From: a phage
Sequence record: PZ496580.1
Direction: 5' to 3' (one strand)
Length of the DNA: 64,000 nt
Shown here: piece by piece, positions 10,356 through 39,695 of the stretch
Layout of the letters: each line of letters begins with the position of its first letter
Numbering within the stretch: position 1 is the first letter of the stretch
Notes under the pieces: generated by a model
The model's database searches: none
What the model saw: the letters and a program-made list of their open reading frames with translations, nothing else
Told to the model about the DNA's origin: nothing
Position numbers and translations under genes: made by a program

Positions 10356-10384
10356 AGTATAGGGGATCTCTCGATCCCCGTCAA
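10356..10384 (-). promoter_or_regulatory. sigma70-type early promoter with spacer hairpin (PeSL-like)
   Basis: Minus strand TTGACG(10379-10384)-17-TATACT(10356-10361); 7-bp inverted repeat ggggatc/gatcccc fills the spacer. Confidence 0.6.
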
Positions 10385-10388
10385 GCAT

Positions 10389-10718
10389 TTATTTTAAATT
10401 TTTTCGAATGTATTCAGACCATTCCTTCCCTGTCAGTTCGGTCCCATTCTGGAAACTGAAATATTCATACGGCATAGAGTCAAGATAAAACAGGATCATA
10501 CATCGCGCCATATAATACCAATCACGATTAAAGTAAACTACGTTATCACCAGTACCATCAGCACCTTTATCATAACCATCGCGGGTACGGGCGACCCATT
10601 GAATAGTATCATTTTTCTCACGGATAGTAACAGGTTCCCAATATCCAGCACCATCCAGCATGACCACACGAACAAGTAAGGAAATATTGGCCTTTTGATT
10701 TGTTGTCATCCCATTCAC
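10389..10718 (-). CDS. hypothetical protein (109 aa); start uncertain, possibly fused with upstream ORF
   Basis: Track start 10718 is GTG with no Shine-Dalgarno; overlaps ORF 10618-10938 by 100 nt. Confidence 0.4.
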   Translation of the reverse strand: MNGMTTNQKANISLLVRVVMLDGAGYWEPVTIREKNDTIQWVARTRDGYDKGADGTGDNVVYFNRDWYYMARCMILFYLDSMPYEYFSFQNGTELTGKEWSEYIRKNLK

Positions 10719-10938
10719 GATGGATTGGTTCGATCTCGTGAAACAGTGCTAAACAATCATGATTATGCAACACTGGCTTACCATCAATCAATGCATGGAA
10801 TGTATACAAACGACCAGTAGACAAATAGCTGTCCTCACGCTCAACCAGTTCAATAGCAATCTTTTTAGCTCGTTCCTTGTGTCGTTGTGCTTTACGCTTA
10901 CGGTTTAATGATTTCATATTCACCTCACACATTATCAA
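10618..10938 (-). CDS. hypothetical protein (106 aa), basic N-terminus
   Basis: ORF overlapping next ORF; see frameshift finding. Confidence 0.4.
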   Translation of the reverse strand: MIMCEVNMKSLNRKRKAQRHKERAKKIAIELVEREDSYLSTGRLYTFHALIDGKPVLHNHDCLALFHEIEPIHREWDDNKSKGQYFLTCSCGHAGWCWILGTCYYP

Positions 10939-11480
10939 AGGTCGCGATATAGTACATTATGAAAATGAGAACTTGCATTACCAATATTGTAGATAATAAA
11001 TTCTTCATCCGGCGCTTGCGCTACAAATTGAGTATGAGCAACCGCTACAACCTTAAAAATACGATCCGTGATCTTGTGTTTAATTTCTGTTCCTACTTCC
11101 ATAGGAACATATTCATGTGTTTCTGTTTCAGTCGCAAAACAGCCATCTTCTTCATAAGCACGAACAAATCGATCGCAATCAGTACGCTTAACAAATTCAA
11201 GAGTATATAATTCTCGTGAATTGTCGGTATAAACCAACACAGAATTATTCTGATAGCGAATCACATACAGGTTATTATCATCGTCAATTACGCAAAAGCT
11301 ACGGATTTGTGTTCCTTCGCCTTTACTCCAGCAGATATTAACCACCGTTCCTCTAATAAAAAAACTTTCCTTTAAATTAAAACTAGCCAATGTGCTAGCG
11401 TGCATTTTAACAACAACACCATCGCCAATTTCCAGTTTACGAAGTTTAACTTCTTTGCTCAGCACACAAAACATCATCAT
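10935..11480 (-). CDS. hypothetical protein (181 aa)
   Basis: ATG at 11480 downstream of promoter 11510-11537; start is MMMFCV. Confidence 0.5.
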   Translation of the reverse strand: MMMFCVLSKEVKLRKLEIGDGVVVKMHASTLASFNLKESFFIRGTVVNICWSKGEGTQIRSFCVIDDDNNLYVIRYQNNSVLVYTDNSRELYTLEFVKRTDCDRFVRAYEEDGCFATETETHEYVPMEVGTEIKHKITDRIFKVVAVAHTQFVAQAPDEEFIIYNIGNASSHFHNVLYRDL

Positions 11481-11509
11481 GTTGTCCTCTCGTTGTTTTC
11501 GATGTGAGC

Positions 11510-11537
11510 ATTATACATTAGCTAATCAGGTTGTCAA
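11510..11537 (-). promoter_or_regulatory. sigma70-type early promoter
   Basis: TTGACA(11532-11537)-16-TATAAT(11510-11515), just downstream of nrdD terminator. Confidence 0.6.
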
Positions 11538-11542
11538 CACCT

Positions 11543-11576
11543 AAAAACGAAAAAGCCGACCCTTTCGGATCGGCTG
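11543..11576 (-). terminator. rho-independent terminator after nrdD
   Basis: 8-bp stem with one G.U (11554-11561/11568-11575), then U-run on minus strand. Confidence 0.6.
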
Positions 11577-11580
11577 AAAA

Positions 11581-13443
11581 TTACATGTGCTTAACGCGGT
11601 TTACCATCTCGGAATGTTTCCCGTGGTTAAATGGACGCAGATCAACAGATCCAAGATATCCACTAACGCGACGGATAACATTCATTTTTTCCAGATTATC
11701 ATTTCCGCAATCAGGGCAAACAAAACCAGACTCGGTCGCTCTCATTTCCTTAGTAGATCCGCATACATGACACACATCAGAAGGGGTATTAACACCGAAG
11801 TAGTGCAATTTATCCATTGCATAGTCTACTACAGTTTCAAGCCCTTTAATGTTGTTTTTCATGTCTGGAAACTCAACATAAGAGATCATGCCACCGGACG
11901 CCAGCCAGTGATAGTCTTTCTCAAAGTCGATTTTCTCAAACGGTGTGACTTTCCGGTCTACGTCAAGGTGGAATGAGTTGGTGTACCAGTCTTTATCGGT
12001 AGCACCCTTAACAATACCAAATTGCTCTCGGTCCAGTCGATTAAATCGATAGCAAAGGCTTTCGGCTGGCGTACCGTAAAGACTAAACCCAAGTCCGGTT
12101 TCGTCCTTCCATTTTTCAGTATAATGACGCAAGATCTTAAGAATATGTTTACCGTATCGCTGCGCATCTTCCGAATCAAACGGATGAACACCAAACAGGA
12201 CGCTCAATACCTCATGTAAACCAATATACCCAAGAGAGATACTAGCGCGACCATCTTTCAACACTTCCAAAATTTCATCGTTTTGATGAATACGGAAAAA
12301 TGCACCTTCGGTATACAGTACAGGAGCAACATTGGCTTTAGCGCCTTTTAAAGCGTCTACGCGACTCATGAGCGCATCAAAACAAATAGGCATACGATTA
12401 GCTAGCTCTTGTTCGAATAGCTCAATTCTGCGCATTACAGACGCTTTACCAGCACGACGCGCGGCAATAAGGGCAATACGCGGAAGATTCAGAGTAACAA
12501 CACCTAAGTTATTACGTCCGTCTAATACTTCTTCGCCTTTCTCATTATGCCACACACCCAGGAAGCTACGACAACCCATCGGGCTAACCGGAACACTAGA
12601 TCCAGTGATACTACGGTTATTCTTCGCAGAGATATAATCAGGGTAAAGACGCTTACTAGAACATTCCAATGCAAGTTGTTTAATGTCGTAGTTCGGATCT
12701 TCCGGTTTAAGGTTTAATCCTTCTTCTAAGAACATCACCAGCTTAGGAAACACCGGAGTTATACCATCTTTACCTAAACCTTTAGTTCGAACTTTCAGGA
12801 TCGCTTTCTGAATCAGTTTTTCTTCCCAGCTAGTACCCATACCAAATGTTAAAGTCACAAAAGGTGTTTGACCGTTGGTGGAGAACAAAGTGTTGATTTC
12901 ATATTCCAACGCCTGATACCCGTCTAGCGTTTCTTTTTCTGTCTTCTCTTGTGCATAGAGAGTATCAGCTTTGATTCCGTAGGTTTCGGCATCAGCAAGG
13001 TGTTTATGATATGTTTTCTCAACATACGGTGCTAACACCTGATCGATGTTTGCAATTGTGGTCCCGCCATATTGATGACTTGCCACCTGTGCGATAATTT
13101 GAGCGGTTACAGCACAAGCAACGCCGATTGATTTCGGACTTTCGATTTGTGCGCTACCCAATTTAAAACCATTCTCTAGCATGTCTTTTAGATTAACAAG
13201 ACAGCAGTTAGTAAACGGCATAGCGGGTGCATAATCCATATCATGATAATGAATATCACCGTCTACATGCGCTTTATAGATGTGCTCAGGTAACACGGTT
13301 TTAGCAATCTGTTTAGACACAGCGCCAGCAATCAGATCTCGACGTGTCGGGAATGTTCGCGCGTCTTTGTTCGCGTTCTCTTTGCTTACTTCGTTTTCTT
13401 TACCCGTTGCGATCTCTGTAATGTCTTTGATTAGTTTTTCCAT
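11581..13443 (-). CDS. nrdD: anaerobic ribonucleoside-triphosphate reductase NrdD (glycyl radical enzyme), uninterrupted
   Basis: 620 aa; C-terminal glycyl radical motif RRVSGYLGS followed by CxxC...CPDCG zinc ribbon; ATG at 13443; terminator hairpin 11543-11576 after stop. Confidence 0.92.
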   Translation of the reverse strand: MEKLIKDITEIATGKENEVSKENANKDARTFPTRRDLIAGAVSKQIAKTVLPEHIYKAHVDGDIHYHDMDYAPAMPFTNCCLVNLKDMLENGFKLGSAQIESPKSIGVACAVTAQIIAQVASHQYGGTTIANIDQVLAPYVEKTYHKHLADAETYGIKADTLYAQEKTEKETLDGYQALEYEINTLFSTNGQTPFVTLTFGMGTSWEEKLIQKAILKVRTKGLGKDGITPVFPKLVMFLEEGLNLKPEDPNYDIKQLALECSSKRLYPDYISAKNNRSITGSSVPVSPMGCRSFLGVWHNEKGEEVLDGRNNLGVVTLNLPRIALIAARRAGKASVMRRIELFEQELANRMPICFDALMSRVDALKGAKANVAPVLYTEGAFFRIHQNDEILEVLKDGRASISLGYIGLHEVLSVLFGVHPFDSEDAQRYGKHILKILRHYTEKWKDETGLGFSLYGTPAESLCYRFNRLDREQFGIVKGATDKDWYTNSFHLDVDRKVTPFEKIDFEKDYHWLASGGMISYVEFPDMKNNIKGLETVVDYAMDKLHYFGVNTPSDVCHVCGSTKEMRATESGFVCPDCGNDNLEKMNVIRRVSGYLGSVDLRPFNHGKHSEMVNRVKHM

Positions 13444-13455
13444 TGTATCACCTAT

Positions 13456-13479
13456 GAAAAAGCGGGATTTTCTCCCGCT
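13456..13479 (-). terminator. terminator-like hairpin immediately upstream of nrdD start
   Basis: Stem agcggga/tcccgct (13461-13467/13473-13479) followed by U4-5 that abuts the nrdD Shine-Dalgarno. Confidence 0.5.
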
Positions 13480-13488
13480 CGTTGATAG

Positions 13489-13983
13489 TTATTTTACCAG
13501 TTCTGCTAATTCTTTTTCTTTAGCTTCTAGTTCAGCTTTAAGCTGTTTAATCTCTTGTCGCTTCTTATTAGCGGCTTCTTGCTTACTATTTCGGATAACC
13601 TGATCTAGATACAACTCCCAATCCTGAATATTTTTGATAATGTAACCGTCAACATTAATTGGTCGGAGATTCAGTACAGCTTCCAGTTTAGTTGCAAAAA
13701 CTTTAATTGCTGGGGTGAAGTATTCATATTCGTTATCTTCAAACCAATAACCTAGACTTGCATTATCAATACGAAGACGAAGTTCAAGATCAAGGTCTTT
13801 ATCTTCGGTGTATAGGTCTTTTACACCCCCCATCGAACCAACAACAACTTTAAAACGAATTTTATCAACACCACCAAACACATCAGTAAGGATACCAGCA
13901 ATTGAGCTATTAGCGCAAGATTGGTCGCTGAATGCGTCAAGGTTTTCTTTAGTTACAGTATACCAAACATCTTGTTTCCACAT
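13489..13983 (-). CDS. hypothetical protein with C-terminal coiled coil (164 aa)
   Basis: ATG at 13983 downstream of promoter 14008-14041; C-terminus KQLKAELEAKEKELAELVK. Confidence 0.5.
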   Translation of the reverse strand: MWKQDVWYTVTKENLDAFSDQSCANSSIAGILTDVFGGVDKIRFKVVVGSMGGVKDLYTEDKDLDLELRLRIDNASLGYWFEDNEYEYFTPAIKVFATKLEAVLNLRPINVDGYIIKNIQDWELYLDQVIRNSKQEAANKKRQEIKQLKAELEAKEKELAELVK

Positions 13984-14007
13984 AATATAATCCTCTCGTT
14001 GTTAAGT

Positions 14008-14041
14008 GGGAGTATTATAGCATACTCCCTTTGCATGTCAA
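14008..14041 (-). promoter_or_regulatory. sigma70-type early promoter with hairpin across -10 (PeSL-like)
   Basis: TTGACA(14036-14041)-16-TATAAT(14014-14019); 8-bp inverted repeat gggagtat/atactccc (14008-14015/14022-14029). Confidence 0.6.
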
Positions 14042-15216
14042 GCACGAACTTTTTTCTTTACTGCTTTCACCTTCTGGCGAATTGCTCGAATCTCTTCGAT
14101 CTCTTTTTCAGTCTCTTTAACAATTTCTTTGCGATTCTGAATATCTGTATCGAGATTATCATCAAGTTTAGGCAGCATGTCAATCAAGAACTTTTTAAAG
14201 TCTTTCAGGTTTCGGATAACAGCACCTTCACCCATTACCGCCACCCCTACACCATCCGGTAGATCACCAAACAGTTTAACCAGTTCAGACAGATGATCAT
14301 GATCTTCTAGTGCTTCTTCCGGTTCAGATGGTAGTTCAACAAAGTAATAGCGTTCATCATTGCTGATCAGGTGATACCAGCAAAGCCCAAAAGATTTAGG
14401 AGTATATTCTACACCATCAACTTCAACCGCGTCAACACTTCCGAAAGAATCTACTTTAGTTACCTTAAATCCGTGTTCCAGCTTTTGAACAATTTCAATA
14501 ACATGACTGGATACGGTTTCAGTGTTAAACCAATGAGGCAAATTATGTGGATTTGGTTTGTAGCGTTCGCCCACTTTAAATCTCTGACCACGCTCTTGCA
14601 TACGGACATATTCAACTCGCGTTATTTCCGCGAAGTATTCAAATTCGCTACCGTCAAACACACAAGCCCATTGATCACAAAAACGATCCGCCTTAACAGT
14701 TTCACCTTTCGCGGTGATCATGGTAGCCGATCCGTGAAATTCTTCTTCAACTAAAAAGCCATATTCGACAAAATCAACAAGTTTCATGGCTTCTTTGTGC
14801 TCTGGATCATGCTCTCCCCAGAATCGCTTAAATTCTTGCAAACCTTCCGGGGTAAACGAATAACATTTACCTTTTTCAAAGTAAGTCGGCATTGCATCCT
14901 CTTTCTTGTTCATCGCTTCGTATGTCTCTTTTGAGATACGTTTAAAGTATTTGCGCTCATTGTGCATAATCATAGTAGCCCAATAATCCACAATATCATT
15001 AGCGGAATAAACTACATCTCCAGCTTCAATAGTAATAACATGACCGTGGTCATCTTTTTCTAATACTTTAAAGCCCTTTTCTACGATTTCAGCAACCCGA
15101 ATATGACCACGGCGCGAAGCATCAGTCAGAATAATTGAATAGCGAGAAAAGTCTAGAAACTCATCTTTACCGCCTTCACGGAATGCATAGTAATGCCCTT
15201 CAAAGAATTTAGCCAT
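14038..15216 (-). CDS. paralog-family protein, multi-domain (392 aa) with coiled-coil tail
   Basis: Several repeated about 90-aa units (e.g. HGFKVTKVDSFGSVDAVEVDGVEYT... WYHLISNDERYYFVEL) related to family A; ATG at 15216. Confidence 0.55.
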   Translation of the reverse strand: MAKFFEGHYYAFREGGKDEFLDFSRYSIILTDASRRGHIRVAEIVEKGFKVLEKDDHGHVITIEAGDVVYSANDIVDYWATMIMHNERKYFKRISKETYEAMNKKEDAMPTYFEKGKCYSFTPEGLQEFKRFWGEHDPEHKEAMKLVDFVEYGFLVEEEFHGSATMITAKGETVKADRFCDQWACVFDGSEFEYFAEITRVEYVRMQERGQRFKVGERYKPNPHNLPHWFNTETVSSHVIEIVQKLEHGFKVTKVDSFGSVDAVEVDGVEYTPKSFGLCWYHLISNDERYYFVELPSEPEEALEDHDHLSELVKLFGDLPDGVGVAVMGEGAVIRNLKDFKKFLIDMLPKLDDNLDTDIQNRKEIVKETEKEIEEIRAIRQKVKAVKKKVRA

Positions 15217-15241
15217 AATATAATCCTCTCGTTGTTTAGAT

Positions 15242-15276
15242 GGGAGTATCTTACTACTCCCGTTTCATCATGTCAA
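15242..15276 (-). promoter_or_regulatory. sigma70-type early promoter with hairpin across -10 (PeSL-like)
   Basis: TTGACA(15271-15276)-17-TAAGAT(15248-15253); inverted repeat gggagta/tactccc. Confidence 0.6.
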
Positions 15277-15857
15277 GCGTTAAATGACTTTTGGATCTCT
15301 TTCAGTTCAGCTACTTTATCGGCGCTATACTTTGCTTGATGTTCCATGCGCTTAAGCTCACCTTTGATATAGGTTTCTAGCTTAGGTTTATTCTCAATCA
15401 GAAAATCTTTCAAGTCATCGGCATTTTTAAAGTATAGCTGATTATCAAAGCTAAAATCTTCCAGCGTCAATGATACCAAAGAAGACTTCGCAAACAAGTT
15501 AATCAGATCTTCCAGAGATTCTTCTTTCTTAACTGGTTTCATTTCTTCAAACTGCTTTTTAGTGATGCGTTTAAAGTATTTGCGCTCGCTTGCATCAATC
15601 AGAATCGATGCACCCTCATAATCATGAGTTTCTACCAAATACACATTACCCATAACATTAACGGTCAGAACTTTAAAGCCATTGCGAAGCACATCATGCA
15701 GGAATTTGTTATGTTGCGGGTATAGTTTAACAAATTCAACAGCAGCATTAGCACTACGGAAAGTGTAGTAACGGCCTCTTTCAAAAACAGCATCATTGGA
15801 AGATTTAGCCGGATATACTTTGTATGTTTTCTGCACCATAATATAATCCTCTATCAT
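15273..15857 (-). CDS. paralog-family protein (194 aa)
   Basis: NGFKVLTVNVMGNVYLVE...SERKYFKRI unit similar to 14038-15216; coiled-coil C-terminus. Confidence 0.5.
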   Translation of the reverse strand: MIEDYIMVQKTYKVYPAKSSNDAVFERGRYYTFRSANAAVEFVKLYPQHNKFLHDVLRNGFKVLTVNVMGNVYLVETHDYEGASILIDASERKYFKRITKKQFEEMKPVKKEESLEDLINLFAKSSLVSLTLEDFSFDNQLYFKNADDLKDFLIENKPKLETYIKGELKRMEHQAKYSADKVAELKEIQKSFNA

Positions 15858-16126
15858 TTCACTAATTGAACAGCACGGAACAGAATGCGATCACATGGAA
15901 GTAGCATAAAGTTCCAGCTCGGATCAAAGTCTTTAGCGGTGTAGGGTTTCCCATCAACAGAGATTTCACTTACATAACCAATGGGCGACACTTTAAGAAC
16001 AGTAAATCCATTCTTGATGACTTCGTAGGTATCTTTCAGACCTTCGTAGTCGTCCTCTAAGAAGTCTTTACGTGCTTGCTCAGATTTAAAAACATAGGCC
16101 ACACCAGCTTTAAACATCTTACGCAT
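15854..16126 (-). CDS. paralog-family protein, single domain (90 aa)
   Basis: ATG at 16126 downstream of promoter 16152-16186; NGFTVLKVSPIGYVSEISVDGKPYT motif. Confidence 0.5.
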   Translation of the reverse strand: MRKMFKAGVAYVFKSEQARKDFLEDDYEGLKDTYEVIKNGFTVLKVSPIGYVSEISVDGKPYTAKDFDPSWNFMLLPCDRILFRAVQLVK

Positions 16127-16151
16127 TGTTGATTCTCCTTCTTGATTAGAT

Positions 16152-16186
16152 GGGAGTATTTTACTACTCCCATTTCATGTTGTCAA
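16152..16186 (-). promoter_or_regulatory. sigma70-type early promoter with hairpin across -10 (PeSL-like)
   Basis: TTGACA(16181-16186)-17-TAAAAT(16158-16163); inverted repeat gggagta/tactccc. Confidence 0.6.
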
Positions 16187-16192
16187 CTACTA

Positions 16193-16666
16193 CTATCTTA
16201 ATTTTTGTATGAATTGTTTCTTATACTTCTTCGTGATTTCTTCTCGTGTATCAGCGTCGCAGTAATCGAAACCTTCTGCGTCCATAATAGCAACCATCTC
16301 CGCGCGTGTCAAGCGTGAAAATCGTTTTACTTTATCAACAGCATATTGAGGATGTAAATGATTGTTGGTGTAGTCTCCTTTGATGTAATTAACATAGTTT
16401 GTAGCCCAAACAACGAAATCAGCACCTAAAGCACCAACCCCAAACCGCTTAAAGTCTCCGGTCAGCGATCCTTCTAGGCGGTTGCAACACGAATGAAGCA
16501 ATCCCCTTACGCGGCCTTGCCCTTTCCCATCTAGATCGTGATCATGGTCAAGATGGTTTTTGCTCATATCCTCAAAAAGTGGCAATTGACAAAGGGGGCA
16601 AATGCCCCCCTGTTTTTCGAATAGTTCTTGTTTGTACTCTTTAGCACTCTTAGCAGTCAGTAACAT
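16193..16666 (-). CDS. 49: endonuclease VII (Holliday junction resolvase) gp49
   Basis: MLLTAKSAKEY...GGICPLCQ...NHLDHDHDLDG...RVRGLL...CN collinear with T4 endo VII; track start 16681 is TTG, ATG at 16666. Confidence 0.85.
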   Translation of the reverse strand: MLLTAKSAKEYKQELFEKQGGICPLCQLPLFEDMSKNHLDHDHDLDGKGQGRVRGLLHSCCNRLEGSLTGDFKRFGVGALGADFVVWATNYVNYIKGDYTNNHLHPQYAVDKVKRFSRLTRAEMVAIMDAEGFDYCDADTREEITKKYKKQFIQKLR

Positions 16667-16690
16667 AAATTCACCCTCCAAAGAAGGTAT

Positions 16691-16972
16691 TTAACCATTA
16701 ATCTTGTTTTTGACTACAAAGGACCGGAACTCATCAAAGCCACCGATATAATCACCATTATAGAAAATCTGCGGCATGGTGGCAATAACTTCTACCCCTG
16801 CGCGATCCTGAATATCGGCAATGATAGAATCAATCTTTACCGGGCGACCGTTTTCGTCAACACCATCATTAACCGGAATGTAGATGTAAGGGATCTTACG
16901 CGCTTCACAAAGGCGCTTTGCATTCTGGCAATACTTACAGTTGTAACCTTCAAAACCAAAAATTTCTACCAT
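16691..16972 (-). CDS. nrdC: thioredoxin/glutaredoxin NrdC
   Basis: CKYCQNAKRL active site and TMPQIF...IGGFDEF resemble T4 NrdC; track start 16984 is TTG, ATG at 16972. Confidence 0.8.
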   Translation of the reverse strand: MVEIFGFEGYNCKYCQNAKRLCEARKIPYIYIPVNDGVDENGRPVKIDSIIADIQDRAGVEVIATMPQIFYNGDYIGGFDEFRSFVVKNKING

Positions 16973-16980
16973 GTTATACC

Positions 16981-17793
16981 TCAATCTACGTTAGTTACAT
17001 AAACTTCTTGCGTATCAGAAGACTTGCCACCTGAACGATCTAGGCAATAGGTCTTATTCAACAGGACGCAGTTTAAATCGTTCCGCTTGATAAAGTCAAG
17101 AAGATGATCATTTACCTTTCCCTTATGATGTGTGACATTACTGATACCAAACTGAAAACCACGCGCCATAATAGATTCTACCCACTGATAGAATTTAATC
17201 TCTTCCTCGTCACTCCAGAACTTATTATATTCCGCAGAAGTGATAAGGTACGGCGGGTCCAAATAAACGAAATCACCTGGCAAGATCTCGATCTCGTCAT
17301 ATCGTCCAGAAGTAAAATTGATTCGACCGTCTTTGTTTTCTTCTTTAAAATTCAGGACACGCTCTACCGCGTTTTCGTTAAAAGTCCGGCGACCAAAGTT
17401 AGCATTAAATTCGCCCTTCCGGTTATGGCGGTTAATGTTGCTAAAACTATGCTGAATCAACACAAACAGAGATAGCGGATCTGGATTCTCGTTATACTTC
17501 TTGCGGAATGCCATATAAGAATCTTTATCATCACGAGACAAACCATTCTCGGCAATAATCCGCTTGATCGTAGAAACCGGATCAGGACACTCGTCAATCG
17601 CTTTGTACGCGTCAATTAAGCGGTGATCATAGTCATTAGCCAGCACATCCCCTTCGACGTACAGAGACACGCTCAAGCCGCCACAAAAGGCATCAACAAA
17701 GCGGTTATAGTGCTTAGGGAAATACTTACTAACACCAGGCAATAACTTTTCCTTATTGCCCGTATAGGGAATTAAACCTAATGCTTTCTTCAT
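16981..17793 (-). CDS. dam: DNA adenine methyltransferase Dam (alpha class)
   Basis: IPYTGNK, FVDAFCGGLSVS (motif I), DFVYLDPPY (motif IV), YNKFWSDEEE; collinear with T4 Dam; ATG at 17793. Confidence 0.88.
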   Translation of the reverse strand: MKKALGLIPYTGNKEKLLPGVSKYFPKHYNRFVDAFCGGLSVSLYVEGDVLANDYDHRLIDAYKAIDECPDPVSTIKRIIAENGLSRDDKDSYMAFRKKYNENPDPLSLFVLIQHSFSNINRHNRKGEFNANFGRRTFNENAVERVLNFKEENKDGRINFTSGRYDEIEILPGDFVYLDPPYLITSAEYNKFWSDEEEIKFYQWVESIMARGFQFGISNVTHHKGKVNDHLLDFIKRNDLNCVLLNKTYCLDRSGGKSSDTQEVYVTNVD

Positions 17794-18224
17794 TATCCCT
17801 TCCTCAAATAAGTTCGCTCAATCTCTACCAGTTCGAAAAAATCTTGCCAACCGCAAGGAAAATTGCAGTTTCCGAAATGATCCTCTTTGTAAAGTTCTTT
17901 ACCGGATGGCAGCTTAATATCTGTTACGCTGTAGTATCCGCAACAATCGCAATCACCCTCTGTATATTCTGTTTTAGTCGGAATATCCATCATTGCCAGA
18001 TACAAAGGTACATCGTCTTGCTCAAAGTTCATGTAACCTTCATGGTCAAACGAAACAAAATTGTCATCACCACCGAAAGGGATATAATGGTCATAGTCGG
18101 TTACAGGTTGACCGTGTAATTCCCATTCTACAATTTTAATATTACCGCTAAAATTGATACCCATAATTTCAACAAGAAAATGAGTATCGTCAATGTAAAT
18201 CTTACTAGGAGTTGGATAAACCAT
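17793..18224 (-). CDS. hypothetical protein (143 aa), Cys-rich
   Basis: ORF; CDCCGYY and CNFPCGW clusters; start not verified. Confidence 0.45.
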   Translation of the reverse strand: MVYPTPSKIYIDDTHFLVEIMGINFSGNIKIVEWELHGQPVTDYDHYIPFGGDDNFVSFDHEGYMNFEQDDVPLYLAMMDIPTKTEYTEGDCDCCGYYSVTDIKLPSGKELYKEDHFGNCNFPCGWQDFFELVEIERTYLRKG

Positions 18225-18234
18225 TATATAATCC

Positions 18235-18531
18235 TCATATCTCAGAGAATAGAATCTCTGTTAGCTTCACTGACTGCTCTCTGAATGTTAGCGTATACTC
18301 GAAAGGAAAGTCAACACCTAATTTCAGAAGAGAATAGCCTACCGCCTCTTTATGCTTATCGGTTAGGGCAATCCTAACCAATTCCCGTTGAATCTCTTTA
18401 GGCGGTGAATGGATAGTAACACTGGTATCATGCAATGTCCAGTCACCATTACGAATCAAGATTAACGGTTTATCGTCATTGAAGATCACCGACCCCTTTC
18501 CGGTCGGTGAGTGTTTTATACTAATCATCAA
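18235..18531 (-). CDS. hypothetical protein (98 aa)
   Basis: ORF in minus-strand array. Confidence 0.4.
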   Translation of the reverse strand: MMISIKHSPTGKGSVIFNDDKPLILIRNGDWTLHDTSVTIHSPPKEIQRELVRIALTDKHKEAVGYSLLKLGVDFPFEYTLTFREQSVKLTEILFSEI

Positions 18532-18742
18532 ATTCTAAGAAATATTCTGGAACGATATAACCGTTAAAGTCATTGCACTTATAAAAATGTGGTGCATTTA
18601 ATGCTGGATGAGCGTTTGTAAACCTCACGTCAGCCAGAAACAGAACGTAATTAACAGGTCTGATACCGACAGAATCAGGATCTAATCCCTTTTCTCTCAG
18701 TTCAGCCAGCGTTAAAACTCGTCCAGATCGTAACTTAGCCAT
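18521..18742 (-). CDS. hypothetical protein (73 aa)
   Basis: ORF in minus-strand array. Confidence 0.4.
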   Translation of the reverse strand: MAKLRSGRVLTLAELREKGLDPDSVGIRPVNYVLFLADVRFTNAHPALNAPHFYKCNDFNGYIVPEYFLEFDD

Positions 18743-19028
18743 GATTTACCCCCAATTCATCAAGATTATGTCGCAGCATTTCAGAGTATTTTTCTACTTC
18801 CTTGATCTTAGTGTGGATCTCCACGATCTCATCTTCACTATCAGAAAGTTTAATGGCAATAGCGGTGCTGCTTTTACCCGCCTTGATCGCTTCTTTCAGT
18901 TCAACCAACATGTCCGCGTGTTTCAATAGTAATTCTTCACGTTGAACATAAGCGACGGTCAAAGCCTCATCAGCGATTTCTAAAGCATTTTCAGCGACAC
19001 CAACAACCATTTTACGAGTAGACAGCAT
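18735..19028 (-). CDS. hypothetical protein (97 aa), helical
   Basis: ORF in minus-strand array. Confidence 0.4.
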   Translation of the reverse strand: MLSTRKMVVGVAENALEIADEALTVAYVQREELLLKHADMLVELKEAIKAGKSSTAIAIKLSDSEDEIVEIHTKIKEVEKYSEMLRHNLDELGVNHG

Positions 19029-19042
19029 AAATTCACCTCACA

Positions 19043-19351
19043 TTATTTCACGTTAACGCCGTCATCAATCCAGCCGACGCTATTTGGTTTAACAGTTTTA
19101 CCATAGGATGCATACTTAATCAAGCATGGTTTAACATCATTATCAAATCTTCCTAAACGTACTCCAAAATCAGGAATATCCATGTATGCGGCTTTATATC
19201 CCCATGTACCGTATTCAGAATCAATCTCAACCGGACGGCCTTTAAAAGCATACACGACACCGTGACGGTCAACGATAACATAGCAATAGCCAGCCGGAAG
19301 ATACACAGTTTCGCCGTAAACTTTAACTGGAGTAGCAGAAGAGATAAACAT
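19043..19351 (-). CDS. hypothetical protein (102 aa)
   Basis: ATG at 19351 downstream of promoter 19380-19414. Confidence 0.45.
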   Translation of the reverse strand: MFISSATPVKVYGETVYLPAGYCYVIVDRHGVVYAFKGRPVEIDSEYGTWGYKAAYMDIPDFGVRLGRFDNDVKPCLIKYASYGKTVKPNSVGWIDDGVNVK

Positions 19352-19379
19352 AATATAATCCTCACATCGTTCATTTGAT

Positions 19380-19414
19380 GCGGTTATTATATGATAACCG
19401 CATTTTCATGTCAA
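19380..19414 (-). promoter_or_regulatory. sigma70-type early promoter with hairpin across -10 (PeSL-like)
   Basis: TTGACA(19409-19414)-17-TATAAT(19386-19391); 8-bp inverted repeat gcggttat/ataaccgc. Confidence 0.6.
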
Positions 19415-19420
19415 CAGTTT

Positions 19421-19795
19421 TTAAAAATCTTCTTCCGGTTTATATCGACCGTCGTCTTCTTGTTTTGGAGTAAATCCTTTATGCGTGCGCGGCTTCGCTT
19501 CCGGTTTACCAGCAATCATCAAACCAAAACATTTCAGCCCTTTATAACACATAACAATATTAACCACGGTCCACGTTATAGGCCATATAATAGAACAAAT
19601 GGCATATGCTCCAGTATCGACCTCTTTGGTGTCCTTGTCGAATCTAGCATACAAGCAAATTATAAGATAGGTGATCATTGCACCAGTAGGCCAGATATAA
19701 AGTACATTAACAATATCTTGTGACGTCACGTTATCCTCCTTACATGTCTTGCAGTGCATAAAAGCATTTTTCTTCATAGTCATAGAAAATGTCAA
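19421..19795 (-). CDS. hypothetical membrane protein (124 aa)
   Basis: Two hydrophobic segments; start not verified. Confidence 0.4.
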   Translation of the reverse strand: MTFSMTMKKNAFMHCKTCKEDNVTSQDIVNVLYIWPTGAMITYLIICLYARFDKDTKEVDTGAYAICSIIWPITWTVVNIVMCYKGLKCFGLMIAGKPEAKPRTHKGFTPKQEDDGRYKPEEDF

Positions 19796-20018
19796 AGTAT
19801 GCTTTTTCTACATACTCGCCATTGATCCAAGCGGCAGTAACAATCAGAGTGGTCCAGTTAGATCCGCTCTCAACCGTAAAGGTTTTAATACCCAGCTTCG
19901 CTGCTAAGTCGAACGCAAACCGGACGCAACCACGGCAGGAAGTGATATTGGAAGTTTTGATTTTGATGCCACCGCGAGTTTTAGAAATTTCTACTTTAGC
20001 GAAAGACAGGTTGCTCAT
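19740..20018 (-). CDS. hypothetical protein (92 aa)
   Basis: ORF downstream of promoter 20061-20089. Confidence 0.4.
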   Translation of the reverse strand: MSNLSFAKVEISKTRGGIKIKTSNITSCRGCVRFAFDLAAKLGIKTFTVESGSNWTTLIVTAAWINGEYVEKAYFDIFYDYEEKCFYALQDM

Positions 20019-20060
20019 TTTGATTCTCCTTAAGAAAGTGTGTTTCGTTTTGATGTGTTT

Positions 20061-20089
20061 AGTATAGGGGATACGTGATCCCCTGTCAA
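20061..20089 (-). promoter_or_regulatory. sigma70-type early promoter with spacer hairpin (PeSL-like)
   Basis: TTGACA(20084-20089)-17-TATACT(20061-20066); inverted repeat ggggat/atcccc in spacer. Confidence 0.6.
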
Positions 20090-20105
20090 CAACTTTTTTA
20101 TGATT

Positions 20106-20426
20106 TTAGTGAATTAACTCTACACCAAAATGAGGCACAGAGAACGCCTTACGAAACACATATTCATCATGTTTAGGGATCGCCCCTAACCTCTCTATTT
20201 CGCTCGCTAACACGATAAACTGTTTATCTGGTGCATATGCCTTGTGTGCTTCAACAACGCACGGAAAACGCGTTTTAGAGAGTTCTGGATAGTTTTCTGA
20301 ATCCAGAAGGACGATGAATACCCTATTACATTGATTGTAGAATCCTGTTTTTGATTTCATCAAGTTTTTTTCTATGTACATTTCGTGCAATCTTCCTTTC
20401 ATGATTTCGTTGGTTCTTGTCTTCAC
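20106..20426 (-). CDS. hypothetical protein, C-terminal segment of a possibly frameshifted gene
   Basis: Track start 20426 is GTG; no Shine-Dalgarno before first ATG (20402); overlaps upstream ORF by 100 nt containing an A7 tract. Confidence 0.4.
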   Translation of the reverse strand: MKTRTNEIMKGRLHEMYIEKNLMKSKTGFYNQCNRVFIVLLDSENYPELSKTRFPCVVEAHKAYAPDKQFIVLASEIERLGAIPKHDEYVFRKAFSVPHFGVELIH

Positions 20427-20667
20427 AGTTTACCCACTCAACAAGATCTTTACCTAACTCGAAAGCCCATTCTCGGTCCTGCTTTACGTTTTGTAGGTAT
20501 GGACTTTCCGACACTCTACGAAGTGATGTTGTCGTAACAAGAATGATCCCAGGAATGGTCGGATGTTCCTTGCCATAAACAATAGGACGCGAGTCACTAT
20601 CAATACCTTGTAAGAAGGTGTATCCTGAATCACTTAGAATCATATACATTTTCATTTCACACATCAC
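20326..20667 (-). CDS. hypothetical protein, N-terminal segment of a possibly frameshifted gene
   Basis: ORF reading through the A7 tract at 20365-20371. Confidence 0.4.
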   Translation of the reverse strand: MMCEMKMYMILSDSGYTFLQGIDSDSRPIVYGKEHPTIPGIILVTTTSLRRVSESPYLQNVKQDREWAFELGKDLVEWVNCEDKNQRNHERKIARNVHRKKLDEIKNRILQSM

Positions 20668-20921
20668 AGTTTCCTCAACCAGTTATTAAAGCGAGCAAAC
20701 CATGATGCTTTTCGTGCTTCTTTTACTTTATGTGCACGAAAACCACTGAAACACCATTCATAATCATCACCGAAACATGATTCAACAGGAACACCCGCAT
20801 TTCGTAGTTCTCTGGTCTTTATCATGAATCCTTGACATAAGGGGCGACCTTCAACAATGATAGGAAGTTTAACTTTTTCCATGAAAGTATACCCAGCACG
20901 GTCAATAATTTCAATCTTCAT
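20664..20921 (-). CDS. small paralog-family protein (family B, MKIEIID type)
   Basis: MKIEIIDRAGYTFMEKVKLPIIVEGR... paralogous to 20940-21137 and 23263-23484. Confidence 0.5.
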   Translation of the reverse strand: MKIEIIDRAGYTFMEKVKLPIIVEGRPLCQGFMIKTRELRNAGVPVESCFGDDYEWCFSGFRAHKVKEARKASWFARFNNWLRKL

Positions 20922-20939
20922 AATATAATCCTCAATTAG

Positions 20940-22379: not shown

Positions 22380-22383
22380 CACC

Positions 22384-35760: not shown

Positions 35761-35961
35761 CTAAAATTTGTTAACGACGAATTGCATAATTAGACTAATC
35801 ACAAACATTGCAAACCAAGTATAAATGCAACAGATAAAAGCTACATACAATTCAATCTGGTCAGAGAATACACCGGGTAAAAGCATTAGCAAAATAAAAA
35901 CAGTAAAGACGCTAGCGATACCCGCAACAAAACCAATATCATTTTTACTAATCGTCATCAA
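35761..35961 (-). CDS. small membrane protein (66 aa)
   Basis: Hydrophobic. Confidence 0.4.
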   Translation of the reverse strand: MMTISKNDIGFVAGIASVFTVFILLMLLPGVFSDQIELYVAFICCIYTWFAMFVISLIMQFVVNKF

Positions 35962-36155
35962 GTCACCGTTTTGTAAAGAAACACAATAAAATCCAAGACA
36001 AGAAAGACAGTGTAAATGATCATCGTCAAGACAGTAAACACTGTCAAATTTTCATCGTTAGTTAATTCATAGTCGCCCATCCATACAATCACAAGATATA
36101 GCATTGAAAGAATGGAAGCACCTACTAAGTTGAAAAACATATTCTTGAGCGTCAT
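35958..36155 (-). CDS. small membrane protein (65 aa)
   Basis: Hydrophobic. Confidence 0.4.
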   Translation of the reverse strand: MTLKNMFFNLVGASILSMLYLVIVWMGDYELTNDENLTVFTVLTMIIYTVFLVLDFIVFLYKTVT

Positions 36156-36347: not shown

Positions 36348-36674
36348 TTAGAAAGAAACCGTTTTCAAGAAATCCAGATTTTCAGTACCGAATACAGAAA
36401 AGTAGTGTTTTCCTTTTTCGGTTTTAGAGAAAGCGATTGTCTTCTCTACATGGTGACGGAAGCCAGACAGACGATCACCCAGGTCAAGGCGGCAAGCGTA
36501 AGTAGTGCCGTTTTCGAAAGTAACCTCGATTTGAGTTTTGTCATATTCGCTTTCATAGGCTTTTGCTGCCGCGTCCTGTGCTTTACGCTCGAAGTCTTCG
36601 AAGTGGAATACTTCGTTTGCGTTAGCGAATACAGAAGATTCAGAGAAGATAACTTTAACAGATACTGGTTTCAT
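36348..36674 (-). CDS. hypothetical protein (108 aa)
   Basis: ATG at 36674 with Shine-Dalgarno, directly downstream of promoter 36706-36740. Confidence 0.5.
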   Translation of the reverse strand: MKPVSVKVIFSESSVFANANEVFHFEDFERKAQDAAAKAYESEYDKTQIEVTFENGTTYACRLDLGDRLSGFRHHVEKTIAFSKTEKGKHYFSVFGTENLDFLKTVSF

Positions 36675-36705
36675 TTTGATACTCCTTAGTGTGTTTCGTT
36701 TCGAT

Positions 36706-36740
36706 GGGTGTATTATGCTATACACCCTCTCGTATGTCAA
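36706..36740 (-). promoter_or_regulatory. sigma70-type early promoter with hairpin across -10 (PeSL-like)
   Basis: TTGACA(36735-36740)-17-CATAAT(36712-36717); inverted repeat gggtgta/tacaccc. Confidence 0.6.
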
Positions 36741-37155: not shown

Positions 37156-37377
37156 TCACAGTTGATCAGCGATGTAAGCGTGACAAGCGCGGAGTTTCAT
37201 TAATGCACTACCTTTCACTTCGCCTACGATGTTCATAACTTCTAAGCGATCAGATGGATTCATTTTAGAGCACCAGATCTGGTTAGCCAATTCCAGTTTG
37301 CTCATATTTGGTTCCATCTCAAACAGTTCGCGCTCAAAGTCGATAATTTCTTTTGCTGCGTCTTTAAAGTTAATCAT
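37156..37377 (-). CDS. hypothetical protein (73 aa)
   Basis: ATG at 37377 downstream of promoter 37407-37435. Confidence 0.4.
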   Translation of the reverse strand: MINFKDAAKEIIDFERELFEMEPNMSKLELANQIWCSKMNPSDRLEVMNIVGEVKGSALMKLRACHAYIADQL

Positions 37378-37406
37378 TTTGGTCCTCCCGTTTCGTTGAT
37401 GGTTGT

Positions 37407-37435
37407 ATTGTAGGGGAGTTATCCTCCCCTGTCAA
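37407..37435 (-). promoter_or_regulatory. sigma70-type early promoter with spacer hairpin (PeSL-like)
   Basis: TTGACA(37430-37435)-17-TACAAT(37407-37412); inverted repeat ggggag/ctcccc. Confidence 0.6.
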
Positions 37436-37443: not shown

Positions 37444-37629
37444 TCAGAAATATGCAATATAGTTTGCCAGTCCTACAGAGTCATCATTCGGCATTGCTTT
37501 TACTGCCAGTTCAAACCCTGCTTCAACTTTCTGTTTAGCGGATTCTTCGTTATAACCCCAGATAACCAGAATAGCTACTACGTTTTCTTTGCTTACTGCT
37601 TTCAGTGCTTTAGTGATGCGACGTGCCAT
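37444..37629 (-). CDS. hypothetical protein (61 aa)
   Basis: ATG at 37629 downstream of promoter 37676-37704. Confidence 0.4.
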   Translation of the reverse strand: MARRITKALKAVSKENVVAILVIWGYNEESAKQKVEAGFELAVKAMPNDDSVGLANYIAYF

Positions 37630-37675
37630 AATTTGATTCTCCGTTTAAGAAAGTGTGTTTCGTTTCGATGGGTGT

Positions 37676-37704
37676 ATTATGCTATAGGCCGGATCTGGTG
37701 TCAA
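37676..37704 (-). promoter_or_regulatory. sigma70-type early promoter
   Basis: TTGACA(37699-37704)-17-CATAAT(37676-37681). Confidence 0.6.
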
Positions 37705-37728
37705 CAACTTTTTTAAAAAATTTAGGCA

Positions 37729-37755
37729 ATAAAAAAGCCACTCCGAAGAGTGGCT
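37729..37755 (-). terminator. rho-independent terminator (UUCG tetraloop)
   Basis: Perfect 8-bp stem agccactc/gagtggct, loop uucg on minus RNA, then U6. Confidence 0.65.
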
Positions 37756-37756
37756 T

Positions 37757-38626: not shown

Positions 38627-38872
38627 TCATAGATCACAGATCCATCTTAAAGCACCACATAAAGCGATCAGAAGACTAGGTATAAACGAGACTAAAACAA
38701 GATTACAAAAATCATCTAAGGTAACGCCGGAATAGCTACCAACTGTAACAACACCGATCATCAGACACAGAAAGAAAACAAATGCAATCAGAAACAAAGT
38801 ATTGCTAAACAGTTTAGTGATCATTAGACACCCCACGACGGTCAATTTCAAAAACTTTCTTATCACCAACAA
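38627..38872 (-). CDS. small membrane protein (81 aa)
   Basis: Hydrophobic. Confidence 0.4.
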   Translation of the reverse strand: MLVIRKFLKLTVVGCLMITKLFSNTLFLIAFVFFLCLMIGVVTVGSYSGVTLDDFCNLVLVSFIPSLLIALCGALRWICDL

Positions 38873-39017
38873 AGCAGGTCACTACCGCCTCGTTGACTTC
38901 CGCAAATTGTTGTGTTACCCACTTAAGGTCAGATCGAAACAATGTTCTATTAATAACAAAACTTTTGCCGCTCTTATCCTTACCCATAAATTTTGCTTTA
39001 ACCATATCCAATTCCAT
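38814..39017 (-). CDS. hypothetical protein (67 aa)
   Basis: ORF. Confidence 0.35.
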   Translation of the reverse strand: MELDMVKAKFMGKDKSGKSFVINRTLFRSDLKWVTQQFAEVNEAVVTCFVGDKKVFEIDRRGVSNDH

Positions 39018-39026
39018 ATTATCACC

Positions 39027-39185
39027 TTATTTGCTAATCGCTAAACCTAATCCGAAGAGAGCACCCGACGCTACAGTATACCCGAAAGTTTCAAAGGCAG
39101 TAAAGATATCTAAGCCACCAGCTAACAGAGTTGCAGTAAACAGAGTACCAGCTACGAACATAAAAGTTTTACCGATAAATTTCAT
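39027..39185 (-). CDS. small membrane protein (52 aa)
   Basis: Hand-translated MKFIGKTFMFVAGTLFTATLLAGGLDIFTAFETFGYTVASGALFGLGLAISK; AGGAGA Shine-Dalgarno; downstream of promoter 39211-39245. Confidence 0.35.
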   Translation of the reverse strand: MKFIGKTFMFVAGTLFTATLLAGGLDIFTAFETFGYTVASGALFGLGLAISK

Positions 39186-39210
39186 TTTGATTCTCCTTTC
39201 GTTTGTTTGT

Positions 39211-39245
39211 GGGGGTATCTTACTACCCCCGTTTCATGTTGTCAA
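39211..39245 (-). promoter_or_regulatory. sigma70-type early promoter with hairpin across -10 (PeSL-like)
   Basis: TTGACA(39240-39245)-17-TAAGAT(39217-39222); inverted repeat gggggta/taccccc. Confidence 0.6.
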
Positions 39246-39251
39246 CTGTTT

Positions 39252-39629
39252 TTAAGAATATTTTACTTCGTCTACAATGTCTTTCATGACATTGATTTCC
39301 ATTCCGGTCAGAACACGTTGGAACATGTGCTGAACATACGCTTTCAGGTATTCATTTGACGGCTTGCTATCAAAAGTCTTTTTAGTGTAGTAGTCATCAC
39401 CGAACGCTACTGTAATTACATTTTCGTCGTCATTCCAAGCGATATAAGCAAATTTGCCGTTATCCCAGAAGCGAGCACTAATTGCTACTTTTGTTGAATC
39501 GAATCCTACTTCGCTGTGAGATTCAAGAACTACTTGCGTGCCAGTTTCTTTATGAATGTAGTAGCGGGATACTAAGTCAAAGTTACGGGTGTAGTGACAT
39601 TCGAATTTATCTTTAAACATCATCATCAT
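39252..39629 (-). CDS. hypothetical protein (125 aa)
   Basis: ATG (first of four consecutive Met codons) at 39629 with AGGAGA, downstream of promoter 39667-39695. Confidence 0.5.
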   Translation of the reverse strand: MMMMFKDKFECHYTRNFDLVSRYYIHKETGTQVVLESHSEVGFDSTKVAISARFWDNGKFAYIAWNDDENVITVAFGDDYYTKKTFDSKPSNEYLKAYVQHMFQRVLTGMEINVMKDIVDEVKYS

Positions 39630-39666
39630 TTTGATTCTCCTAAGTGTGTTTCGTTTCGATGTGTGC

Positions 39667-39695
39667 ATTATGCTATAGTCGTTTATGGTTGTCAA
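39667..39695 (-). promoter_or_regulatory. sigma70-type early promoter
   Basis: TTGACA(39690-39695)-17-CATAAT(39667-39672). Confidence 0.6.

Follow-up and report, generated by a model that had tools for sequence, protein, structure and literature searches.

Early-promoter units with stem-loops, very probably PeSL cassettes, in the hyperplastic region of a Krischvirus genome

We analyzed a family of repeated early-promoter units in the window, that is, the whole 64,000-nucleotide (nt) stretch of phage DNA in sequence record PZ496580.1. Between positions 10356 and 39695, 17 intergenic units lie on the minus strand in front of small early genes. These units are very probably the promoter-early stem-loop (PeSL) cassettes of RB49/Phi1-type Krischvirus phages. 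Since PeSLs have been published in Phi1 and RB49, which belong to the same genus, the units are already known in this lineage and represent a rediscovery of a published element. A first-pass annotation, made from the sequence alone, had described them as PeSL-like. Their agreement with the published definition, and the presence of positional orthologues of 17/17 units in both Phi1 and RB49, support the name PeSL in its strict sense.

PeSLs were defined in Phi1 and RB49 by Arbiol, Comeau, Kutateladze, Adamia and Krisch (2010, Genome Biol Evol 2:140; PMC2839356), who found 52 and 51 of them per genome, respectively, mostly in hyperplastic regions upstream of ORFans. A PeSL consists of a sigma-70 consensus promoter, an AT-rich upstream tract, a polyG/polyC stem-loop, and a Shine-Dalgarno (SD) sequence plus ATG at the 3' end, and the similarity between copies spreads over ~100 bp (PMC2839356). 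The stem-loop occupies one of five positions (in the spacer, over the -10, over the -35, upstream, or downstream of the -10), the commonest being the spacer and the overlap with the -10. In the same study, Phi1 PeSL206/205 was assayed as a promoter (~13,000 Miller units), while the stem-loop of Phi1 211/210 had terminator-like activity and cut downstream lacZ as much as rrnB T1 did. Both activities were measured in uninfected E. coli, without phage proteins. Mini-circles between PeSLs were also reported, with crossovers mapped in the -10-to-SD zone (PMC2839356). Independently, early promoters of RB49 have been confirmed by 5'-end mapping (Nolan et al. 2006, PMC1524935).

A megablast search of window positions 11500-27000 against GenBank phages gave Enterobacteria phage Brandy as the closest listed phage (96.2% identity over 100% of the query), with Phi1, RB49, GEC-3S and many other Krischvirus members at ~95% identity; 56 records reached a query coverage of 80% or more. 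By these identities the window is Krischvirus DNA, from the 'pseudo-T-even' RB49 group of T4-like coliphages. GC skew and the layout of the open reading frames (ORFs) reveal minus-strand genes up to ~44 kb, followed by plus-strand late genes. Orthology with the Phi1 annotation identifies 10356-39695 as early, hyperplastic DNA of the nrdG-to-gp3 stretch, extending from nrdG/ORF053 to ORF125, where dozens of small hypothetical ORFs are found among nrdD, frd.2, gp49, nrdC, dam, gp38, rI, tk, vs, regB and dmd. The genes downstream of the units are orthologues of Phi1 ORF053, 055, 057, 060, 068, 070, 078, 080, 084, 095, 113, 116, 117, 124 and 125, plus frd.2 and vs.1. Thus, like the published PeSLs, the units occupy a hyperplastic region and mostly precede ORFs of unknown function. 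For all comparisons among genomes we used the orthologous regions of eight relatives: Phi1, Brandy, GEC-3S, RB49, JSE, G2248, JK32 and Makalu_003.

The 17 units, each named after the start position of its -35 hexamer, are the following.

39626-39733, minus strand: u39695, upstream-terminator class; hairpin ACCCCGAAA-att-TTTCGGGGT plus T7 (39713-39733); promoter TTGACA-17-CATAAT (39695-39667); long CA-rich leader; AGGAGAATCAAAATG; ATG 39629, orthologue of Phi1 ORF125.
39183-39245, minus strand: u39245, -10-straddling class; TTGACA-17-TAAGAT; stem GGGGGTA/TACCCCC (39211-39230), with 0 T in the 9 nt after it; ATG 39185 (ORF124).
37627-37756, minus strand: u37704, upstream-terminator class; UUCG hairpin AAGCCACTC/GAGTGGCTT (37735-37756) plus T-run; TTGACA-17-CATAAT; ATG 37629 (ORF117).
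37375-37435, minus strand: u37435, spacer class; TTGACA-[AGGGGAG gataa CTCCCCT]-TACAAT (stem 37412-37430); ATG 37377 (ORF116).
36672-36740, minus strand: u36740, -10-straddling class; stem GGGTGTAT/ATACACCC (36706-36727) around CATAAT; long leader; ATG 36674 (ORF113).
31324-31386, minus strand: u31386, -10-straddling class; stem GGGGGTA/TACCCCC (31352-31371) around TAATAT; ATG 31326 (ORF095, upstream of regB).
30476-30545, minus strand: u30541, TTGACT-17-TATTAT; promoter bracketed by a 14-bp inverted repeat (CTTGACTTTCTGGT... / ...ATCAGAAAGTTAAG, including G-U pairs), one arm over the -35 and the other just after the start site; ATG 30478 (vs.1).
24735-24834, minus strand: u24795, upstream-terminator class; GAAA hairpin (24809-24834) plus TTTTTCGTTTTT; TTGACA-17-CATAAT; ATG 24737 (ORF084).
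23482-23553, minus strand: u23553, decayed -10 class with only GTGT/ACAC pairs (4); long leader; ATG 23484 (ORF080).
22320-22416, minus strand: u22379, upstream-terminator class; UUCG hairpin (22395-22416) plus T-run; 12/12 promoter TTGACA-16-TATAAT; ATG 22322 (ORF078); just downstream of gp38.
20016-20089, minus strand: u20089, spacer class; TTGACA-[AGGGGAT cacgt ATCCCCT]-TATACT (stem 20066-20084); long leader; ATG 20018 (ORF070).
19349-19414, minus strand: u19414, -10-straddling class; 12/12 promoter; 10-bp stem ATGCGGTTAT/ATAACCGCAT (19378-19403); SD GAGGATTATATTATG; ATG 19351 (ORF068).
16124-16186, minus strand: u16186, -10-straddling class; stem ATGGGAGTA/TACTCCCAT (16150-16173) around TAAAAT; ATG 16126 (ORF060).
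15214-15276, minus strand: u15276, -10-straddling class; stem GGGAGTA/TACTCCC (15242-15261) around TAAGAT; ATG 15216 (frd.2).
13981-14041, minus strand: u14041, -10-straddling class; 12/12 promoter; stem GGGAGTAT/ATACTCCC (14008-14029); ATG 13983 (ORF057).
11478-11575, minus strand: u11537, upstream-terminator class; GAAA hairpin (11554-11575) plus TTTTTCGTTTTT; 12/12 promoter; ATG 11480 (ORF055).
10311-10384, minus strand: u10384, spacer class; TTGACG-[GGGGATC gaga GATCCCC]-TATACT (stem 10362-10379); ATG 10313 (ORF053).

Every unit matches the sigma-70 consensus at 10/12 positions or more, and four match it at 12/12, with a spacing of 16-17 nt; the -35 is TTGAC[A/G] in 16/17 units and TTGACT in u30541. 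The 20 nt before the -35 average 75% A+T against 60% window-wide, and these upstream A/T tracts contain motifs of the AAAAAGTTG / TTTTTAGGTG type. Stem-loops occur at positions named in the PeSL definition: three in the spacer, seven over the -10 and five upstream, with one further inverted repeat bracketing -35 to +16 (u30541) and one decayed stem (u23553, whose orthologues in most relatives have GGTGT/ACACC, 5 pairs). The spacer-class stem, with arms AGGGGAG, AGGGGAT or GGGGATC, takes up the whole spacer, from the first base past the -35 to the last one ahead of the -10. The -10-straddling class has perfect 7-10-bp stems whose arms include GGGGGTA, GGGTGTAT, ATGCGGTTAT and (AT)GGGAGTA(T). 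The upstream-terminator class carries no embedded stem; its hairpins precede a T-run and are capped by a tetraloop, UUCG or GAAA, except in u39695, which has a triloop. The first-pass annotation had counted at least 15 near-consensus minus-strand promoters and about 18 cassettes, with a GC inverted repeat at 10 sites. Our promoter scans returned 17 intergenic units at those places, exactly 10 of them with a nested stem (3 spacer and 7 -10-straddling), and the region it had delimited runs exactly from the end of the -10 in the first unit (10356) to the start of the -35 in the last one (39695).

We retrieved the sequences of the experimentally assayed Phi1 units from the Phi1 intergenic regions. 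The unit upstream of ORF210, used in the terminator assay, is TTGACAGGGGATCGGTGATCCCCTTATAAT, with TTGACA-GGGGATCGGTGATCCCC-TTATAAT; that upstream of ORF205, used in the promoter assay, is TTGACAGGGGATCACCGATCCCCTATACT, with TTGACA-GGGGATCACCGATCCCC-TATACT. Both are of the spacer class, and the promoter-hairpin core of u20089 differs from them in few bases, located in the hairpin loop and around the -10. The GEC-3S record independently carries promoter and terminator annotations at the orthologous sites. Compared with the PeSLs of Phi1 and RB49, our units share ~95% nucleotide identity, position, promoter, AT tract, GGGG...CCCC-type stem-loop, leader, SD, ATG and gene context, and differ in nothing essential.

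Chance is ruled out as the origin of the units by two statistics. In region 10000-40000, the minus strand contained 17 matches to TTGACA-N16-18-TATAAT at 11/12 positions or more and the plus strand a single one, whereas 200 dinucleotide-preserving shuffles gave an expectation of 0.70 +/- 0.85 (maximum 4). We counted as embedded stems those with a loop of 3-8 nt and perfect pairing over 7 bp or more, 4 or more of the pairs being G-C; they were present in 10/17 units, compared with 0.5% of the 43-nt windows that sampled the background of this region (binomial P = 1.4e-19). Over the whole window, ~26 distinct hairpins of this kind were found (39 listed with nested variants), compared with 4.3 +/- 2.4 in shuffles. 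When folded as RNA, the ten nested hairpins had energies of -11 to -21 kcal/mol, with z scores of -2.1 to -5.8. A search of the whole window against Rfam at gathering thresholds gave no match, which places the hairpins outside the curated RNA families. The scans also located 11/12 sigma-70 matches within coding sequence on the transcribed strand, at 29871, 22130, 16785, 16312 (within the endonuclease VII gene) and 14183, where ~0.7 matches in total are expected by chance; these five may be internal early promoters.

The first-pass annotation had named a failure of the units to align beyond the -35 and -10 hexamers as grounds for rejecting its reading. They do align beyond them. In a MAFFT alignment of 18 units, conservation extended to a G/T preceding the -35, to the discriminator and start region (ACAC[A/C]C-A-TCGAAAC), to a leader rich in CA, and to a ribosome-binding module of the form AGGAGAATCAAAATG or GAGAGGATTATATTATG. 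An nhmmer profile of the units recovered 17 of them at E 1e-8 to 1e-14 over ~70 model positions and nothing else in the 64 kb. Thus, as in published PeSLs, the similarity is wide and ends in an SD and ATG. The same search yielded no further or decayed copies beyond the listed units, and it dropped u2369, a unit outside the region, despite its place in the training set. A shared leader exists, as had been claimed, although its long form, CATCGAAACGAAACACACT, is common to 6 units and not to most of them. The longest exact runs between units measure 35 nt (u37704/u36740) and 29 nt (u24795/u11537). In u37704, the 35-nt run includes the 3' arm of u36740, ATACACCC, while the 5' arm is missing; mosaic units such as this one point to past exchange between units.

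Next, we compared the units among the relatives. All 17 are at the same positions in Phi1, RB49, Brandy, GEC-3S and JK32, and likewise in G2248 except for u22379; in JSE and Makalu_003, a flank-anchored search did not recover u10384. Variable sites across the eight relatives amounted to 0/99 in the -35 hexamers, 1/58 in the -10 hexamers and 5/154 in the nested stems, compared with 37/169 in the non-stem spacer (Fisher P = 2.5e-7 versus stems), 10/56 in the nested loops (P = 9e-4) and 93/831 in flanking coding sequence (P = 1e-3). In u31386, the spacer bases before the stem are almost wholly replaced between genomes and the stem is unchanged. The nested stems are therefore under strong selective constraint, and the inverted repeats, whose conservation had been named as a check on the earlier proposal, are kept. 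Because the divergence between orthologues is too small, evidence for covariation rests on paralogues: the units of the window, of a second Phi1 region and of IMG/VR contigs of Krischvirus carry the stems GGGAGTA, GGGGGTA, GGGTGTA, GGGGATAT and GCGGTTAT, each with its exact complement. To judge from these paralogues, it is complementarity, and not one particular sequence, that is kept.

It had also been suggested that a terminator and an embedded hairpin occur together as parts of one common unit. Instead, they behave as mutually exclusive alternatives: 10 and 5 of the 17 units carry an embedded hairpin or an upstream terminator, respectively, with 0 overlap (P = 0.003). This mutual exclusion fits the published view of the nested stem as the terminator or attenuator module of the unit. 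In the upstream class, T occupies 6-8 of the 9 nt that follow the hairpin, the U-tract of an intrinsic terminator, while the 1-5 T that follow the spacer-class stems belong to the -10 hexamer itself and do not form such a tract. The -10-straddling stems have a 3' arm that begins with the last T of the -10 and extends to position -1 (or +2); in the spacer class, the stem ends on the base that immediately precedes the -10. Consequently, a nested stem lies outside its own unit's transcript and would form only in read-through RNA arriving from upstream.

Our model suggests that each unit would serve as a compact transcriptional punctuation ahead of a small early gene. The A/T tract and the near-consensus promoter (TTGACA, 16-17 nt, TAnnnT) would be read by the unmodified host sigma-70 RNA polymerase right after infection, most likely from the conserved C-A(+1)-T located 7 nt after the -10, a start that is predicted for this phage and has been mapped in RB49. 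The short, CA-rich, unstructured leader and the strong SD (AGGAG or GAGAGGA), 7-8 nt before the ATG, would then ensure efficient translation. GGAG is the motif recognized and cut in T4 by the phage RegB endoribonuclease; it is present within the SD of 13/17 units, and regB itself is located at ~30.6-31.0 kb. By analogy with T4, cleavage at GGAG would permit the later shut-off of early messages. The stem-loop would stop, attenuate or cap RNA reading through from upstream, insulating the small-ORF modules. This third step draws on the published activity of one spacer-class stem and, for the upstream class, on the sequence; for the -10-straddling class it is doubtful. Finally, the 60-100 bp shared between units, with exact runs of up to 35 nt, would provide homology patches for phage recombination, allowing the occasional swap or loss of cassettes between units.

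Several observations weigh against the reading of these units as PeSL cassettes. Of the 9 nt after a -10-straddling stem, 0-2 are T (e.g. CCCCC-ACAAACAAA), so these stems have no U-tract, and the published terminator assay was made on a spacer-class stem followed by TTATAAT, not on the -10-straddling class, for which a terminator role is doubtful. No compensatory changes were seen among the orthologues, where 5 variable stem sites in 8 genomes at 93-96% identity are uninformative. Both the units and most of the flanked ORFs are kept in place in the 8 relatives. Chained blastn of window positions 8000-45000 against these genomes, followed by parsing of the gaps, identified ~12 separate large indels, at least five of which are homing-endonuclease insertions. 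Another event is an internal deletion, not bounded by PeSLs, in a 715-aa ORF, and indel breakpoints fell within a unit in one or two of the ~12 events, about the chance expectation. The insertions and the deletion are listed here.

In nrdD: homing-endonuclease insertion in JSE.
Between nrdC and dam: homing-endonuclease insertion in GEC-3S.
Beside the promoterless terminator at 32596-32620: homing-endonuclease insertion in JSE and JK32.
At 33745: homing-endonuclease insertion in JSE, G2248 and JK32.
Exactly at the ATG of promoter 43578: probable homing-endonuclease insertion in Brandy, a 696-bp ORF that takes over the promoter and SD.
24844-26991, minus strand: 715-aa ORF, complete in Brandy, G2248 and JK32; a remnant of 70-130 bp is left in Phi1, RB49, GEC-3S, JSE and Makalu_003.

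The product of the 715-aa ORF has only a weak, sub-threshold Ig_3 match. Other indels (ORF074, a 229-bp ORF in Makalu_003, and a replacement at 35755-36150) are separated from the nearest unit by hundreds of bases.

One event is of a different kind. G2248 lacks both gp38 and u22379, and a single spacer-class unit (TTGACA-CGGGGAGAAATCCCCG-TATAAT) is found in their place. The downstream junction falls within the shared leader CATACCAACTAAGGAGAATCAAA, the same -10-to-SD zone in which the published mini-circle crossovers were mapped. On these junctions, the gp38 difference reads as a textbook case of a clean cassette swap between PeSLs, and it is the only clearly PeSL-bounded event of the ~12. The proposal that the cassettes drive modular shuffling is thus only weakly borne out: the G2248 swap speaks for it, while the conservation of the units and of most flanked ORFs, and the share of homing endonucleases and internal deletions among the indels, do not. 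The indel data are compatible with the mobile-cassette idea but do not demonstrate it independently.

The gp38 adhesin gene (22423-23208, minus strand; flanks 22320-23262) matches Pfam GP38 with E = 1.9e-70. Its sequence has 84-89% nucleotide identity to T-even-type gp38 (e.g. AV115, Kha5h and Shfl2), and those phages share no other DNA with the window. This similarity looks like a sign of horizontal transfer of the host-range gene.

The architecture was also found in other phages. An exact-pattern scan of IMG/VR with TTGACAGGGGA-N7-TCCCCTA returned 27 matches, ~12 of them in Krischvirus-type contigs. Every non-Krischvirus match includes a well-formed -10 with a final T, and in almost all of them an SD and ATG follow 25-45 nt downstream. 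The contigs carrying them, which come from uncultivated phages, showed no megablast-level similarity to known phages (L012 and L017 had no match, and L028 a tRNA match only). In distant blastn/tblastn searches, which give an approximate placement, three of these loci had ~68% nucleotide identity in patches to the ~350-kb Salmonella/Cronobacter jumbo phages Munch, 7t3, PHA46 and GAP32. The three loci contain arrays of consensus promoters, some with spacer stems and one with a -10-straddling stem, GTGGGTAT/ATACCCAC. Seven small environmental contigs form another family with one conserved unit. The non-Krischvirus promoters with a hairpin in the spacer, or in one case across the -10, were located as follows.

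L017: 2084-2112 and 3983-4011.
L020: 1468 and 2200.
L028: 10168, minus strand.
L010, L012, L019, L026, L027, L030 and L032: further promoters of this set.

These virulent enterobacterial phages, the jumbo relatives and the environmental contigs alike, share with our units the layout TTGACA-GGGGA...TCCCC-TAnnnT, the 17-nt spacing and a C-A-T start region; in contrast, their genomes are unrelated or very distant, and flanks and leaders differ. As judged from the matches, the spacer/-10 hairpin promoter architecture is not confined to the RB49 group. To our knowledge, the spacer-hairpin promoters of non-Krischvirus phages have not been described as PeSLs, although our literature searches were not aimed at that point.

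Two further kinds of element resemble the units. The PeSL-like motifs of T4/PST and KVP40/nt-1 and the elements of the T-even IP locus likewise combine an early promoter with a stem-loop, flank variable small genes and have been proposed as recombination points (Comeau, Arbiol and Krisch 2014; PMC4122927). However, their authors consider them analogues and not homologues, with T4-type early promoters and weaker, AT-rich stems without polyG/polyC. Intrinsic terminators also have a GC-rich stem-loop ending a transcription unit, and the five upstream-class hairpins fit this description fully. The nested hairpins, in contrast, are followed by the -10 hexamer in the spacer class, or by a C/A-rich discriminator and leader in the -10 class.

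We then weighed other explanations of the stems. The nested hairpins, above all the -10-straddling ones, might not terminate transcription but form 3'-end caps against 3'-to-5' exonucleases on upstream messages that read through or are processed, or pause or processing sites, and so set messenger RNA stability. The absence of a U-tract after the -10-straddling stems agrees with this, as do their stability (-13 to -16 kcal/mol), their strong conservation and the position of their end at -1/+2, outside the unit's own transcript. Nevertheless, a spacer-class stem lowered downstream lacZ as much as rrnB T1 did (Arbiol 2010, PMC2839356), and mutual exclusion with true terminators suggests equivalent roles. 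We consider stem-loops of this capping kind possible, but less probable than the attenuating modules of PeSLs.

A more specific proposal is that the -10-straddling hairpins are a functionally distinct class, with no U-tract, an end at the start site and the AT-rich -10 as loop. They would perhaps cap the 3' ends of RNA, or act in the DNA as cruciforms or operators that modulate open-complex formation or initiate recombination, in a design that is convergent across the early promoters of virulent phages. We put this forward as an unlikely, speculative reading. If it were true, the recurrence in unrelated lineages would reflect a general, convergent design of early promoters and not a quirk of the RB49 group.

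Could the inverted repeats act as DNA? They might be operators for a dimeric phage or host protein, or cruciforms that negative supercoiling extrudes, acting as an on-off switch of the promoter or as a substrate that endonuclease VII cleaves to initiate recombination. They are perfect palindromes placed exactly between the promoter hexamers or centred on one, with the AT-rich -10 as centre, and their conservation greatly exceeds that of the other spacer bases. A DNA-binding protein for GGGG...CCCC was already a speculation of Arbiol et al., the gp49 endonuclease VII gene is in the window, and the same architecture occurs in unrelated phages. However, arm sequences vary between units while complementarity is kept, which favours a nucleic-acid structure over one sequence-specific protein, and no phage proteins were present in the uninfected E. 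coli in which the published activities were measured. For stable cruciform extrusion, moreover, arms of 7-10 bp are short. A role at the DNA level is accordingly improbable. The protein-operator option raised in the first-pass annotation is not favoured, and a single sequence-specific operator protein as the main explanation is ruled out by the differing arms.

The weakest alternative, that these are ordinary early promoters made alike by common descent and consensus selection, with incidental hairpins and no special role in shuffling, could appeal to the units and most flanked ORFs staying in place in 8 relatives and to most indels being unrelated to units, but it is highly improbable given the embedded stems in 10/17 units against 0.5% of the background, stems 7-fold better conserved than neighbouring spacer bases, complementarity kept across different arm sequences, the G2248 gp38 junction in the shared leader and the published mini-circle junctions.

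As PeSLs, the units would combine a promoter, a terminator and recombination homology in ~100 bp, a format in which accessory genes could plug in and out without breaking expression. Our analysis leaves this published picture unchanged. What it adds is the mutual exclusion of embedded hairpin and upstream terminator, a -10-straddling class without a U-tract that is the commonest class in 10356-39695, the rarity of PeSL-bounded indels, and the stability of the cassettes among eight close relatives, in which homing endonucleases account for more of the differences in gene content than PeSL exchange does. The points of remaining interest are the -10-straddling class and the occurrence of the design beyond the RB49 group.

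Related elements of the window that lie outside the region, or have no promoter, are the following.

2312-2369, minus strand: u2369, spacer class; TTGACG-[CGGGGA gaaa TCCCCG]-TATACT.
52815-52916, plus strand: unit 52851, upstream-terminator class; hairpin AAAAGCCAA/TTGGCTTTT plus T-run; 12/12 promoter TTGACA-16-TATAAT (52851-52878).
43537-43600, minus strand: promoter 43578, TTGATA-16-TATAAT, forming the loop of inverted repeat TTTTAGCACCCT / AGGGTGCTAAAA (AGCACCCT/AGGGTGCT).
32596-32620, minus strand: copy of the terminator module without promoter, AAGCCAATCC-gaaaa-GGGTTGGCTT plus TTTCGTTTT, between nrdC.11 and vs.6.

Other GC hairpins were located outside the units. The one at 13461-13479, after nrdD, is terminator-like and is annotated as a terminator in GEC-3S, and that at 18486-18510 has a 9-bp stem within coding sequence. 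A third, at 42203-42223, is a bidirectional terminator between gp3 and ORF130, alongside which Phi1, G2248 and JSE carry an extra 1.0-1.2-kb ORF. Finally, a 184-aa ORF at 3411-3965 on the minus strand lies between a gp47-like exonuclease gene and the ORF that follows, and is missing from Brandy; by eye, its C-terminal part resembles the AP2 DNA-binding domain known from HNH/AP2 homing endonucleases.

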